DNA from: a virus
Lineage: Duplodnaviria > Heunggongvirae > Uroviricota > Caudoviricetes
Strand: one strand, 5' to 3'
IMG/VR virus record: IMGVR_UViG_2698536485_000022
DNA length: 15,456 nt
Below are positions 1 through 5,865 of this stretch, piece after piece (within the stretch, counting starts at the first letter, position 1; each line of letters opens with the position of its first letter). The position numbers and the translations under genes are program-made. The notes beneath the pieces were generated by a model, which saw nothing but the letters and a program-made list of their open reading frames with translations, was not told where the DNA came from and searched no databases.

Positions 1-420
1 ATGACGGATTATCAGCCATACAGGAAAGGAACTGTGCTTGCCCCAACTGGGCCATGCAATCATCTTCATGTGATTTGTAATGATCCTGTTTATTACCCCG
101 TTAACGATTGTTATTGTGTTTTAGTTGTTAATATTTCTAGTATCAAGGATGGGGTACCCCACGATCCGTCTTGCGTCTTGAATTCCGGTGATCATCGCTT
201 TATCAAGCATCCAAGTTATGTTGTTTACGCTGAAGCTATAATTTGGCGAGTGGATAACATGGTTAGAAAGCAGCGATCGGGTGAGATTTCTGTTCATGAT
301 GATATGCCAGAAGCTACATTCAATAGAATTCTGGACGGTTTTGATATATCTGATGAAGTTACGCCAAAGAACCTTAAATTTAAAAATAAATATTGCGTAT
401 CATCTATTGATGATGAGTAA
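1..420 (+). CDS. hypothetical protein (139 aa); true start may lie upstream of the window
   Basis: ORF from ATG at position 1 to TAA at 418-420 (MTDYQPYRKGTVLAPTGPC...). No family recognised by eye. Same strand as the downstream CoiA-like gene. Confidence 0.4.
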   Translation: MTDYQPYRKGTVLAPTGPCNHLHVICNDPVYYPVNDCYCVLVVNISSIKDGVPHDPSCVLNSGDHRFIKHPSYVVYAEAIIWRVDNMVRKQRSGEISVHDDMPEATFNRILDGFDISDEVTPKNLKFKNKYCVSSIDDE

Positions 421-459
421 ACAACAGGAATTGTTTCGGTATAGCTTCTGGTGTTTTCT

Positions 460-633
460 ATGGAAGATCAAAAAGCAACCAAGCCACAGCTTAAGTTCGA
501 CACAATGAAAGCATTCGCAGGTATGGGTGCTGCTGTTGAAGTTCTGATGAAGGCTGCTCCTAATGCGTTCACTCACGTTACTGTCTCTGGTAAAGAGCAG
601 CAGGGTAAGCTTCGTCGTCGCAAAGCAGTATGA
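460..633 (+). CDS. small hypothetical protein (57 aa), doubtful
   Basis: ATG 460 is in frame with track ORF 451-633 (GTG 451). Gly/Ala-rich core and basic tail (GKLRRRKAV). No convincing Shine-Dalgarno; may be non-coding. Confidence 0.2.
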   Translation: MEDQKATKPQLKFDTMKAFAGMGAAVEVLMKAAPNAFTHVTVSGKEQQGKLRRRKAV

Positions 634-771
634 TTCATAGGTGGTGATTTTTTAAAAATGTCTTTAGACATAATGTCGTTCACTTAAGTATGGTGGTACT
701 GCGTTTCACCAGATAATGGTTTTTTGATATCTTAATTTCCCTCGCCAGGAGGGTAAATACAGGTAGCATGA

Positions 772-1806
772 ATGCCACTAAAAGCGTCACTTAACGGAAA
801 AGAAATTCATTCTTTTGAATTTAACTCTCAGGAATGGGAATATCTTAAACAGACATATAAAAGCCAGTCTTTGTTTATGTCGTGCTGTGGTCAGCCTGGT
901 ATACCTAAAACAAGCAAACTTAATAACTATTACTTTGCACATAAATCCAAAAGCGATTGCCTGTATGCGAAAGAAAGCGCAGAACATTTATATCTCAAAT
1001 TCTTAATCGCAAAATTAGCCAGTGATGCTGGCTGGTCAGTTACTACCGAAAAACAAGGGGTGACCCCAACAGGAGAACAATGGATTGCCGATGTGTTTTG
1101 TACCAGAAATAACGCGAAACTGGTTTTCGAAGTACAGTTATCACCGCAAAAAGACGATGAATTTAAAGAACGTCAAAAACGATATATCGCATCAGGAGTC
1201 CGTGCACTGTGGTTGCGAAAGTTACGTAAAGGAAGTAAAGAGCATGGTGGGAATATATACCATAGCTACGATTTACCTGTTTTTGGTGTGCGTCAGAATG
1301 AAAATGGGGACTTGTATCTACCACAGTTTGGGATTAGTGTCAGGGAGTTTATCGCGGGTGTTTTTGCCAGAAAGCTATTATGGTTCCCAAAGGTTGGGGA
1401 TGTGCTGACTGCAAAAATAGAATCGCGAGTTACAAAATGCTGGAGATGTAAGAAACGAACTGGAATTATCAGGGGTATTTCTGTTTACAGTAAGTCCGTA
1501 TTCGTCAAGTTTTTATCTTTTCGTGATTCTGATGTCAAAGAACTAATAGCCATTCACGTGGATAACAAAAAACTCTGGGCGGCTGGAATTGGTACTGTTA
1601 AGGACAGAGACAGTGATTGTTATTTATCTAACTGTTGCATACATTGTTATTCGCTTATAGGAGATTTCTTTTTATTAGAGGTTTTCGACTACCCGAATGA
1701 TAAACAAAAGATAATGATAGAATTTACTTTTACTTATGCTAGCAATATGAAAATCTTATCCAGCGAGTGGGTATTTGATGGTAAAAAAGCTGAAATGTTT
1801 TTCTGA
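772..1806 (+). CDS. CoiA-like PD-(D/E)xK nuclease-family protein with Cys-rich C-terminal half
   Basis: 344-aa ORF from ATG 772. Motif series YFAHK ... ESAEHLYLK ... IADVFC ... LVFEVQLS ... RYIASGVRALWL matches what I recall for CoiA-family nucleases (D ... E-x-Q catalytic pattern). C-terminal half has CWRCKK and CCIHC clusters. Visibly AT-rich compared with the phage backbone. Confidence 0.55.
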   Translation: MPLKASLNGKEIHSFEFNSQEWEYLKQTYKSQSLFMSCCGQPGIPKTSKLNNYYFAHKSKSDCLYAKESAEHLYLKFLIAKLASDAGWSVTTEKQGVTPTGEQWIADVFCTRNNAKLVFEVQLSPQKDDEFKERQKRYIASGVRALWLRKLRKGSKEHGGNIYHSYDLPVFGVRQNENGDLYLPQFGISVREFIAGVFARKLLWFPKVGDVLTAKIESRVTKCWRCKKRTGIIRGISVYSKSVFVKFLSFRDSDVKELIAIHVDNKKLWAAGIGTVKDRDSDCYLSNCCIHCYSLIGDFFLLEVFDYPNDKQKIMIEFTFTYASNMKILSSEWVFDGKKAEMFF

Positions 1807-1842
1807 TGCTGTCTTATCCTCGTTGCCATCCCGAAATGACAG

Positions 1843-1875
1843 GAACATCTGGGGGATGTTCTGGGTATTGTGTTC
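1843..1875 (+). terminator. weak candidate terminator hairpin downstream of the CoiA-like gene
   Basis: Inverted repeat GAACATC-tgggg-GATGTTC (1843-1861) followed by a U-rich but interrupted tract. Weak. Confidence 0.25.
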
Positions 1876-1997
1876 ATAACAAAATGCCCCGACTATCAGA
1901 GCCGAGGGAAATTAAGATATCAAAATAACATTATCTGGTGAAATGCAGAGCAGCTCATCTTAAGTGAACGGCATTGGCCTTTATGCGTTTTTTTTCT

Positions 1998-2291
1998 TTA
2001 GTGATGTTCTTTGCTCTTCTGTTTGTCTGTTCTGACCCGTTCCCACTCGATACGTCCTTCTTCTCGTCTTTTATCTATGTATTCCGCAAGATCCTGAATA
2101 TTGATGCAACGTTTTGCTTTTTGTGATGTGCCAATGCGATATGTAGGAACAGGCAACTTACAAGCGTTTGCTTTTGCTTCTGCTGTGGCTGGACTCATAC
2201 CAAAGTACTTTTGGCTAACTGCTGAGAGTTCAATGTTTGAGGTATTGAATTCAGCCATCAGTAAAAACAAGGTGTTCATAAATTTCTCCAT
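1998..2291 (-). CDS. PrtN-family small DNA-binding protein (pyocin-activator / excisionase-like)
   Basis: Track ORF 1998-2354 (TTG start) trimmed to ATG 2291 (MEKFMNTLFLLMAEF...). Pattern MNT-FLLMA ... YF ... LPVPTYRIG-SQKA ... DLAEYIDKRR matches my recollection of the PrtN family. Lies 28 bp downstream of the membrane gene on the same strand. Confidence 0.6.
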   Translation of the reverse strand: MEKFMNTLFLLMAEFNTSNIELSAVSQKYFGMSPATAEAKANACKLPVPTYRIGTSQKAKRCINIQDLAEYIDKRREEGRIEWERVRTDKQKSKEHH

Positions 2292-2319
2292 TATCCCGGC
2301 TGCACCCGGGAGTAATATA

Positions 2320-3186
2320 TTAATTAATAGCGTCTTTGCTCTGAAGTACAGCAAATGCCATTAATACCTCTAAAGTATATCGTCTATAAAACTTAACGAA
2401 TCCAACATAAAAAACATAGACGAAGAAAAAGCTAAGTAGCGTCGAAATAGAAATATAAGACACCGCCCCGCCTTCTATAGCACGATAAATTAATGTTAGA
2501 AATGATATCCAAAATGTAATTACAAATACTAAACAAATATTTCTGCAAAAACCATATAATGCAACATAGTTTTGAATTTTTGTTTGATGTTGATTAGAAA
2601 ATTCATAGACGTAATGATAAGCCAATCTGAAAAGATCATCATGAAGACCTGTCCTGATGTTTAATAATTTATCGTCTATTCTGAATTTTTTTTCATAACC
2701 TTCTTTGATCATTAGCCATGTGGTATTAGCTAATTGAAATGGCAATGATTGTGAATAACATAGTTTTTGAGTGGCGTAATCCCATGGTATTATCGGGAAT
2801 AACATCACTTTGATTATGCAGTATTTTATTTTTCTCTTTGTGTCTTCGTTCTGTTTGTCACTTGATGGTGTTAAGACGTTTTTTTTGTCATCTGATAACT
2901 TATTAAATAGATATTCTGACGGATATTGCAATTCTTCGTTCATATATTTTTCAATAAAAAATGCGGATGTGATAGATATAAAGTGTCCAGCTATGTAAGA
3001 TATGATTACTATTGAACCATAGTTCAAAATGCCAAAGATTTGACTTTGACCTCTGAGCAATTCAGTTAAGTCAATAACAATATCTAGATCGAATGTCAAA
3101 CCACAGAAATACATTAACAGGATAAAAAATCCACCTGGTATTAAATATCCAAGAAAGTCATAGAATGAGAATGGATTTTGATTCAT
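2320..3186 (-). CDS. multi-pass inner-membrane protein, AT-rich cargo gene, function unknown
   Basis: Track ORF 2320-3210 (TTG) trimmed to ATG 3186, preceded by GGAGAG. 288 aa with at least four helix-length hydrophobic segments (FLGYLIPGGFFILLMYFCGLTF, IFGILNYGSIVIISYIAGHFISITSAFF, ICLVFVITFWISFLTLIY, ISISTLLSFFFVYVFYVGFV). Strongly AT-rich. Confidence 0.7.
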   Translation of the reverse strand: MNQNPFSFYDFLGYLIPGGFFILLMYFCGLTFDLDIVIDLTELLRGQSQIFGILNYGSIVIISYIAGHFISITSAFFIEKYMNEELQYPSEYLFNKLSDDKKNVLTPSSDKQNEDTKRKIKYCIIKVMLFPIIPWDYATQKLCYSQSLPFQLANTTWLMIKEGYEKKFRIDDKLLNIRTGLHDDLFRLAYHYVYEFSNQHQTKIQNYVALYGFCRNICLVFVITFWISFLTLIYRAIEGGAVSYISISTLLSFFFVYVFYVGFVKFYRRYTLEVLMAFAVLQSKDAIN

Positions 3187-3294
3187 CGTTGCTCTCCATA
3201 AATTTTTCAATTTGTAATATAACCTATATCTATATGTTAATAAATTACTTATATGTTCTTTTATGGTAGAGTTTGAATTTGTACGTGCTAATTT

Positions 3295-3819
3295 TTACGA
3301 CTCAGTTAACTCTTTAAAGCGTTCCATAAACATCCCGTAGGCATGGCCCGGTGCCAGTGGAATCACGTTGAACATCTCTGTTGCCGGGATGCCTTCCAGT
3401 ACAGGCCAGAAAGAGCCATCATCAAGCCCGAGATCGCGGCGTTCGGTTGCCAGCATGATGAGATCGGCATATTTCACGGGCGTACTCATAACCGGGGGTA
3501 ACCCGTATTTCTCACGGATTACGGCGTCTATTTTTTCTTCCATCCGTTTATAGTCAGGAAGAAGGCGTTTCAGTGGTGCGGGAATGTCCTGGCAATACGC
3601 TTCTGTTGCATCATGCATTAACGCTTCAAAAGCAAATTCCTGCGGCACCAGCTGGCTGCAAAGCACCGCATGTTGGGCGACGCTGTAGAAGTGAGAAAGA
3701 TGACCGGCAAAGCGACAGATATTTGAAAGGGAAACCGCGATATCGTTAATAACGATGTCATCTTTATTTATCTTGTCATAATAAAAATGCTTCCCGGAAA
3801 AAGTTTTAATAAATGACAT
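3295..3819 (-). CDS. yfdR: HD-domain phosphohydrolase, YfbR/YfdR-like 5'-deoxynucleotidase family
   Basis: Track ORF 3295-3846 trimmed to ATG 3819 with GGAG 8 nt upstream; 174 aa. HD signature AGHLSHFYSVAQHAV ... ALMHDATEAYCQDIP. Size and position next to a 274-aa gene match my recollection of CPS-53 yfdR. Confidence 0.7.
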   Translation of the reverse strand: MSFIKTFSGKHFYYDKINKDDIVINDIAVSLSNICRFAGHLSHFYSVAQHAVLCSQLVPQEFAFEALMHDATEAYCQDIPAPLKRLLPDYKRMEEKIDAVIREKYGLPPVMSTPVKYADLIMLATERRDLGLDDGSFWPVLEGIPATEMFNVIPLAPGHAYGMFMERFKELTES

Positions 3820-5400: not shown

Positions 5401-5799
5401 GGTGGGGTTGTCACTCAGGCGTATGGTCAACCTGACAATCCGGTGTCCTCAACGGGGAAAGAGTAACCCCGCCATACTTACCGCCGCGCCATTTCGCGGA
5501 TTACCACAACGCTGAGAGCACTTAGCCAGTTACGGCACCACACTTTGTCGCGGCTCCATAAATGCCCTCATCGTTGCCCCCTGGTCTCTTCCCTGGCGTC
5601 AAACCGGATCGCCGCGCTGGTTAGGCGTCTTATCAGCATCCTCATTGACTTGCACATTCCGGCTACCTGGTTTGTTTGCCCGAGCAAGGAGTGGATTATC
5701 CCCTTTAACGTCACCAGACCGCTAACGACGCATGTGCCATACGCCGTGTTACAACCAAATTTTGTTTAATCTTGCCTGTGTTGTGTTTCTTTTAGATAC

Positions 5800-5827
5800 A
5801 TTATGTATCCCGAGGGTACATTGTCAA
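5800..5827 (-). promoter_or_regulatory. candidate early-left promoter (pL-like) with overlapping palindromic operator
   Basis: On the minus strand: -35 TTGACA (5822-5827), 16-nt spacer, -10 CATAAT (5800-5805). Palindrome GATACA-TTA-TGTATC (5795-5809) overlaps the -10. GGTACA half-site at 5815-5820. Confidence 0.45.
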
Positions 5828-5831
5828 GTAT

Positions 5832-5854
5832 AAAAAAACCTGCCGAAGCAGGTT
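5832..5854 (-). terminator. rho-independent terminator ending the cI transcript
   Basis: Minus strand AACCTGC-TTCG-GCAGGTT followed by seven U, 12 nt after the cI stop codon (5866-5868). Confidence 0.65.
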
Positions 5855-5865
5855 ATAAATATTGA

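Follow-up and report, generated by a model that had tools for sequence, protein, structure and literature searches.

A stand-alone four-helix membrane protein gene beside xis-int in lambdoid prophages, distantly related to Csx27 and possibly directed against other phages

The stretch of DNA analysed here (15,456 nucleotides of the tailed-phage record IMGVR_UViG_2698536485_000022 of IMG/VR; hereafter ‘the window’) carries, next to its excisionase gene, a stand-alone gene for a 288-aa protein with four predicted transmembrane (TM) helices. Sequence comparison points to a distant homology between the family of this protein and Csx27, rather than to membership of Csx27 proper. The gene is best explained as an accessory gene (‘moron’) that a lambdoid prophage acquired horizontally: the genes on either side of it are direct neighbours in related phages, and its GC content (0.30) deviates from its surroundings. 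As to what it does, we tentatively favour a membrane-acting, single-gene exclusion or abortive-infection factor that would shield the lysogen, or a cell under infection, from other phages, a reading to which we assign a probability of roughly 0.45; its anti-phage function, its sensing, and its oligomerization are what we infer, as is its expression in the lysogen. The coordinates of the features on which this description is built are collected in Table 1.

Table 1. Features of the four-TM gene and its immediate surroundings, in window coordinates.
Feature	Positions	Strand	Basis
CDS of the 288-aa four-TM protein, stop codon included	2320..3186	-	WP_001075213.1; phrog_12528
AT-rich 108-bp spacer upstream of the gene, with SD GGAGAG and weak candidate promoter	3187..3294	-	Sequence
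Two TATATGTT copies	3231-3238 and 3250-3257 (span 3231..3257)	+	Exact match
Signature N-terminal motif QNPFSxYDFLGYxIPG, codons 3-18; predicted cytoplasmic face, start of TM1	3133..3180	-	Near-invariant in the 136-sequence alignment
TM1, residues ~13-32 (predicted)	3091..3150	-	Hydropathy; AF2 helix 8-31
TM2, residues ~55-77 (predicted); conserved Y64, G67, H68, S74	2956..3024	-	Hydropathy, alignment, AF2
Cytoplasmic helical domain, residues 78-211 (predicted)	2554..2955	-	20 K/R, conservation by region, allele mosaic
TM3, residues ~212-236 (predicted), preceded by invariant R215	2479..2553	-	Hydropathy, alignment, AF2
TM4, residues ~244-263 (predicted), then conserved C-terminal cytoplasmic helix (K265, R268, E273)	2398..2457	-	Hydropathy, alignment, AF2
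Conserved stem-loop UCCCGG-GUGCAG-CCGGGA, after the stop codon and before the ribosome-binding site of xis	2294..2311	-	Covariation; also L088 2820-2834

The gene is real and of foreign composition. The minus-strand open reading frame (ORF) spans 2320–3210 and opens with TTG; the likely start codon of the 288-aa protein is the ATG at 3186, and a Shine–Dalgarno (SD) sequence, GGAGAG (3192–3197), lies five bases before it. An identical 867-nt coding sequence is present in RefSeq (WP_001075213.1, ‘hypothetical protein’, of Escherichia coli 2013C-3264), the PHROGs match is a function-unknown entry, and a literature search found no mention of the protein. The GC content over 2251–3300 is 0.28–0.33 (~0.30 in the gene), compared with 0.40–0.55 in the flanks. 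Measured against three diverged alleles (those of UTI89, Salmonella, and E. fergusonii), dN/dS is 0.17–0.32, i.e. the gene is under purifying selection. The 288-aa ORF and the AT-richness reported in a first-pass annotation made from the letters alone therefore both stand (ORF 2320–3186, minus strand; GC ~30%).

The same annotation had described a stand-alone gene with its own AT-rich upstream region, and this, too, is borne out: the 108-bp spacer (3187–3294) is real, since the stop codon of yfdR lies at 3295–3297. In K-12 and O157, the genes occupying this slot overlap yfdR or directly adjoin it, whereas the window gene has a spacer instead. The spacer is missing from yfdR prophages without the gene, the homology of which breaks at ~3300, and a gap of at least 108 bp is also found upstream of the gene in Salmonella, E. 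fergusonii, Enterobacter, and Klebsiella phage P7641. Across diverse loci, a same-strand upstream gene is present in 66 of 71, with a median gap of 114 bp.

The first-pass annotation also took two direct repeats in the spacer as a sign of independent regulation. Both copies of TATATGTT are present where it had placed them, but they do not amount to evidence for a regulatory role. The sequence is absent from the remainder of the window (two copies versus 0.40 expected), and at least two copies arise in 13 of 200 shuffles, so the repeats are only weakly above chance; they are retained in the near-identical spacers of UTI89 and E. fergusonii but missing from the contexts of the orthologues in Salmonella, Enterobacter, and Klebsiella. 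A sigma-70 consensus scan (at least 9/12) of the gene's strand in the spacer and its surroundings found no promoter, and a terminator scan of the same strand found none in or around the spacer and none between yfdR and the gene. By eye, a weak candidate promoter can be placed in the spacer (−35 TTTATT at 3239–3244, 17 bp, −10 TATATT at 3216–3221), which at 8/12 is below the scan threshold. The otherwise unrelated Salmonella upstream region has the same geometry (TTTATA, 17 bp, TACATT); this shared spacing is a hint of a promoter, suggestive and no more.

On its other side, the gene is followed after 40 bp by a PrtN/TorI-like xis in the same orientation, and the terminator scan found no canonical terminator between the two. 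The stem-loop at this junction is paired in 90% of cells of the alignment, five of its six pairs covary, and its observed score was reached in none of 500 shuffles. It has an invariant GUGCAG loop and lies just ahead of the ribosome-binding site in xis genes that belong to several unrelated types. Because it is also present in an O157 prophage without the membrane-protein gene—where a TTTT run comes after it, the window copy having no U-tract—we regard it as an element of the xis junction and not as specific to the gene. Its function may be that of a weak terminator or of a processing site, shielding xis-int from upstream transcription, or that of a junction at which modules are exchanged. An Rfam search with the spacer and the stem-loop returned no family.

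The surroundings of the gene vary in the manner of a cassette slot. The gene order in the window is yfdR, four-TM gene, and xis, and that in a K-12 derivative is yfdR, a yfdS-like ‘phage protein’, yfdT, and torI, which confirms the earlier assignment of the gene to the position of yfdS/yfdT. The yfdR-xis slot of O157 EC4115 is occupied by a methyltransferase gene, an exonuclease remnant, and small ORFs; that of UTI89 and CFT073 is occupied by a diverged allele of the gene, after which a different xis and integrase follow. The yfdR-yfdQ module is present in ~3,000 complete E. coli genomes, most of which lose homology at 3300, after the yfdR stop, and the gene itself is present in only ~205 of the complete genomes, with homology breaks bounding it at ~3300 and ~2277–2325. 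Homologues of 50–85% identity in Salmonella, E. fergusonii, Enterobacter, and Klebsiella phage P7641 are in every case immediately followed by xis-int, and this placement holds across at least three unrelated types of xis, whatever the type of int; in the Salmonella prophage, the gene is essentially the sole cargo between cI and xis-int. Among the full-length matches in IMG/VR, 31 of 60 sit 0.8–2.4 kb from a contig end.

Kyte–Doolittle windows delimit four hydrophobic segments in the protein (residues ~12–32, 55–77, 212–236, and 243–263). The middle segment (78–211) contains 20 K/R, and the short loops (33–54 and 237–243) are acidic or neutral. Under the positive-inside rule, this distribution of charge (20 K/R in 78–211) predicts a protein with both termini inside, four TM helices, and a helical domain of ~135 aa in the cytoplasm between TM2 and TM3. 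An AlphaFold2 (AF2) model built from a 136-sequence alignment (pLDDT 91, pTM 0.89) is all-helical, with helices that match the hydropathy segments and with the long helices of TM2, TM3, and TM4 running on into the cytoplasm; a model from a shallow alignment (pLDDT 62) was set aside in its favour. Hydropathy and AF2 thus agree with the first-pass description of two plus two hydrophobic helices around a soluble middle, and topology prediction, which had been named there as a check, gives four TM helices. The fold of the model has no counterpart among solved structures or BFVD models, and a sequence search of the PDB with the family profile found no match.

No family had been recognized at first reading, a view that can no longer be held. 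A profile search of 1.84 billion cluster representatives retrieved 973 relatives at E ≤ 1e-3 (208 at E ≤ 1e-30), and among the relatives listed nearly all are full-length and 265–320 aa long; two independent Csx27 models detect the family. Genome matches extend across Gammaproteobacteria, Bacteroidota, Deltaproteobacteria, Firmicutes, Chloroflexi, Acidobacteria, and others, and many of the homologues lie outside prophages. The positions conserved in the 136-sequence alignment are the N-terminal signature motif (QNPFSxYDFLGYxIPG); Y64, G67, H68, S74, and E79; Y88-P89-S90; H191, H200, and K203; N206-YVALYG; and R215, F263, K265, R268, and E273. Conservation peaks (0.51–0.77) in four membrane-adjacent segments that face the cytoplasm and is lowest in the periplasmic loops (0.08–0.15) and the central linker (0.14). 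The cytoplasmic domain is conserved at its membrane-proximal edges (E79, Y88-P89-S90, H191, H200, K203, and N206-G212) and hypervariable in its middle (~96–182). According to the predicted topology, all strongly conserved residues are on the cytoplasmic face, and this arrangement, together with the variable periplasmic loops, argues for sensing or catalysis inside the cell and not for receptor blocking from outside.

The relationship to Csx27 was detected with several profiles. The PADLOC Csx27 model matches the query at E = 1.8e-5 (23 bits; residues 6–257 to positions 4–182 of the 206 in the profile) and 96 of the 136 family members (best E 2.2e-10). The VI-B-associated ‘tm_4’ profile matches 29 members and the candidate profile PDC-M48A matches 6. 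The NCBIfam model CAS_Csx27 matches 24 of the 136 (best 2e-6), all far under the level at which that model confers a name, and gives no match to the query at E ≤ 0.1. The register is consistent: in the alignments for which coordinates are given, residue 6 pairs with position 4 of the profile and the C-terminal half stays co-linear. Among the characterised models of PADLOC v2 (i.e. those that are neither candidates nor CRISPR accessories), none matches the query or its relatives, the matches being confined to Csx27/tm_4, PDC-M48A, and PDC-S47; no Pfam match is consistent across the family.

Csx27 and the window protein share four predicted TM helices arranged as 2+2 and an N-terminal motif in the same register; the four-TM description of Csx27 is that of Makarova et al. 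(2019) as summarized in later papers. They differ in length, the Csx27 profile having ~206 positions and the window protein 288 aa, i.e. ~80 residues more, with an expanded cytoplasmic domain. They differ also in context: Csx27 proper adjoins cas13b and a type VI-B CRISPR array, whereas the window gene is stand-alone in prophages, and no cas13b, CRISPR array, competence, ubiquitin-like, or WYL neighbour is linked to it in the window, in E. coli, Salmonella, and Enterobacter prophages, or in 78 diverse loci. Csx27, an accessory membrane protein of type VI-B1 CRISPR-Cas and the only characterised relative, represses Cas13b interference in E. coli, that of heterologous Cas13b included. In papers that summarize Makarova et al. 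(2019), it is speculated to form a channel for single-stranded DNA, and the wider Csx27 family is tied to natural-transformation and ubiquitin-like genes. A separate observation concerns a metagenome contig (L181, 604–4513) retrieved with a VI-B repeat pattern: it carries a CRISPR array, a gene for a 1,119-aa Cas13b-like protein, and an adjacent gene for a 181-aa protein with one TM helix, which, judged by eye, looks like Csx28 rather than Csx27.

A full-length homologue with 44% identity is found in P2-like phages between gpA and gpQ, a locus that, with old and tin, is a defence hotspot (Rousset et al. 2022). The homologue is protein 2 of system #3 of that study—a pair formed by a DUF4760 gene and the four-TM gene, with 1,102 occurrences the third most frequent cargo (Table S5B)—and is thus likewise phage-borne accessory cargo, in an anti-phage slot. 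The main text of that study does not mention the pair, and the sequence is missing from its supplementary table of cloned systems. The pair occurs in 289 of 5,426 complete E. coli genomes. In the P2 version, the one-TM DUF4760 gene comes first, whereas the window version is without it, and the phage type and the slot differ. Neither the window nor any lambdoid, non-phage, or non-P2 locus examined contains the DUF4760 gene, the product of which has no PADLOC match. In phage vB_EcoM-705R2, GenBank has no DUF4760 call upstream of the four-TM homologue (L002 5464–5958, plus strand) and shows an opposite-strand ORF (5537–5857) instead; the presence of the DUF4760 gene at this locus is shown by tblastn and by the RefSeq annotation of E. 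coli genomes.

Compared with the UTI89 allele, the coding sequence has ~81% nucleotide identity, which is unevenly spread: yfdR, the spacer, and codons 1–82 are 93–100% identical, whereas codons 83–182 and 223–245 fall to 58–73%. In window coordinates, the hypervariable stretches are 2641–2940 (codons ~83–182) and 2461–2520 (codons ~223–242). These segments suggest allele shuffling or diversifying selection, on small numbers; in the 23-codon stretch around periplasmic loop 2 (codons 223–245), dN/dS is ~1.2–1.3, again on small numbers and not more than a hint.

The architecture had been likened at first reading to that of SieB and RexB, and what survives of this likeness is analogy. As with lambda SieB and RexB and the P22 SieA type, the window protein is a small prophage inner-membrane protein encoded in or near the early-left region. 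Homology to lambda SieB and to RexB was rejected, the hhalign probabilities being 0.3% and 0.5%, respectively; Pfam SieB (PF14163) scores 18.8 bits with the query against a cut-off of 26, covers one hydrophobic stretch only, and shows such a sub-threshold match in 1 of the 136 family members (the query). RexB requires RexA, whereas the window gene has no conserved partner, and no rexA-like neighbour is present in the window. Stators of the MotA/ExbB/ZorA type have the same gross topology (TM1-2, a large cytoplasmic domain, TM3-4, and a C-terminal tail), and the pairing of the P2 homologue with a single-TM protein adds to the resemblance, whereas the window gene is without such a partner and the TM helix of DUF4760 contains no acidic residue. 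A MotA/ExbB-like stator was rejected (Foldseek non-significant, E ≥ 1.3 and TM-score ≤ 0.25; Pfam MotA_ExbB in 0 of 136).

Around the homologues in 78 diverse genomes there is no recurrent partner (no neighbour family occurs in more than nine loci), which suggests that the gene can act alone. The 144 immediate neighbours match 128 Pfam families, e.g. integrases, type I restriction-modification subunits, AbiEii-like ATPases, ribonucleotide reductase, and glycosyltransferases; they are heterogeneous, and defence genes are a minority among them. Among the larger neighbours are restriction enzymes of types IIG and I and a Mokosh-like helicase. One homologue is part of a clear defence island (MmeI-type restriction-modification, HEPN_AbiU2, and DEAD helicase), and another closes an EpsG/Acyl_transf_3/glycosyltransferase cluster after a 35-bp gap. 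In a lambdoid prophage of Serratia proteamaculans, the homologue is located in the nin region of the rightward early operon. The gene next to it (L182 6917–8008) encodes an N-terminal HNH-endonuclease domain and matches PADLOC PDC-M68A (1.2e-28) and CBASS/Shedu-type effector profiles; the two genes may form a small defence cluster.

The window itself holds further cargo beyond xis. Positions 772–1806 (plus strand) encode a 344-aa CoiA-like protein (Pfam CoiA_nuc 4.6e-10, CoiA_N weak) without a PADLOC match; its gene lies between a putative toxin-antitoxin pair and xis, on the opposite strand and 0.5 kb from the four-TM gene. A link between the two genes was rejected, co-occurrence—counted as genomes holding at least 80% of window positions 1–3300—being limited to 7 of 5,426 genomes, and many genomes have the flanks without the CoiA-like gene, which is separate cargo; its product is possibly another defence-type nuclease. 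The ORF at 1–420 (plus strand; phrog_19071, a function-unknown entry) comes directly after a Panacea-domain gene outside the window (L001 11233–11805), and the two look like a Panacea-antitoxin/toxin pair at the prophage end, beside a 5′ fragment of dusA.

We favour an anti-phage role because the gene is stand-alone, behaves as a cassette, occupies the xis/int slot, recurs in the P2 hotspot, has defence neighbours, and exists as mosaic alleles; the accessory exclusion or defence role proposed in the first-pass annotation fits these contexts, restriction-modification and defence islands among them. In such a role, the conserved module on the cytoplasmic face would bind or sense a ligand or a phage component, and the TM bundle, probably oligomeric, would then change membrane permeability or the passage of DNA. 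The abundance of polar residues that do not vary (H, E, K, R, N, and S) suits an enzyme or a site for ligand binding better than it does a simple pore. By analogy, the behaviour of Csx27, which lowers rather than raises Cas13b immunity, would speak against defence, as do the absence of the P2 pair from the table of cloned hotspot systems and the observation that several immediate neighbours are glycosyltransferase or polysaccharide genes and defence genes a minority. The polar residues also keep alive an enzymatic role, in which the protein would be an envelope-modifying membrane enzyme or transporter (acting on lipid-linked glycan, LPS, or phospholipid) and the gene a case of lysogenic conversion like the int-adjacent gtr and oac, any phage resistance being indirect, via an altered receptor. 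Residues D10, H68, S74, E79, H191, H200, K203, N206, R215, K265, R268, and E273 resemble a catalytic or substrate site, in ~8% of the diverse loci the gene directly adjoins glycosyltransferase or sugar-nucleotide genes, and one homologue terminates the polysaccharide cluster mentioned above. The window gene combines low GC with a location close to int, as serotype-converting genes typically do. We nevertheless consider this role unlikely: there is no similarity to transferase, flippase, or acyltransferase families (Pfam and NCBIfam) and no structural match, polysaccharide genes are missing near most loci, and the P2 hotspot and restriction-modification contexts suit defence better.

Transcription bears on a different alternative. 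The lack of a clear promoter or terminator counts against a moron expressed in the lysogen, since a strong lysogenic promoter would read into xis, and it keeps alive the possibility that the gene belongs to the early lytic genes of the leftward operon, is transcribed together with yfdP-yfdQ-yfdR once the prophage is induced or a cell infected, and serves the phage itself (e.g. through superinfection exclusion during lytic growth, or manipulation of the membrane or of DNA traffic). The orientation shared with yfdP-yfdQ-yfdR-xis downstream of a CI/Cro-like switch is in keeping with this, as are the uninterrupted stretch from yfdR to the gene (no terminator, and no threshold-level promoter in the spacer), the distance of 40 bp to xis, into which constitutive read-through would be expected to destabilize lysogeny, and the Serratia homologue within a rightward early operon. 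We judge it improbable, however, as upstream spacers of 108 bp or more are found again in unrelated contexts, 66 of 71 diverse loci have a same-strand upstream gene at a median gap of 114 bp, the Salmonella gene is essentially lone cargo between cI and xis-int, and many homologues are not in prophages at all. Very unlikely, in our estimation, is a role in modulating or antagonizing a host pathway of immunity or DNA uptake, i.e. a counter-defence or regulatory role conceived by analogy with Csx27 and Cas13b. It would accord with the lowering of Cas13b interference by Csx27 (heterologous Cas13b included), with the link of the Csx27 family to natural-transformation and ubiquitin-like genes (Makarova et al. 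2019, as summarized), and with the CoiA-like competence nuclease gene 0.5 kb away in the window. That gene, however, is on the opposite strand and co-occurs in only 7 of 5,426 genomes, and no competence, ubiquitin-like, or WYL neighbour is conserved in the 78 loci. E. coli, moreover, is not known to have type VI CRISPR.

The computational tie of the family to Csx27 and the cataloguing of the P2 homologue as hotspot cargo are already known; the stand-alone form in lambdoid prophages, its fixed position before xis-int, the motifs and topology, and the link between P2 system #3 and Csx27 appear to be new. A broader conjecture, unlikely as it stands, is that the family constitutes a widespread single-gene anti-phage module, in which an infection-sensing cytoplasmic site would gate a membrane channel, and that Csx27 would be a shortened form of it, taken over by type VI-B CRISPR. 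Were this true, the E. coli prophage gene would show what Csx27 does, and a new class of membrane effector would be present in ~9% of complete E. coli genomes (lambdoid and P2 forms together). What Csx27 does has been an open question since 2017, and the organisms that naturally carry it are awkward to handle, whereas a related stand-alone gene occurs naturally in E. coli, with the uropathogenic strains UTI89 and CFT073 among its carriers, and the P2-borne homologue is among the commonest uncharacterised cargoes of a validated defence hotspot. Negative plaque assays would indicate an envelope-modifying or phage-internal role; positive ones would establish a new and abundant membrane defence gene and provide a tractable model for the Csx27 family.
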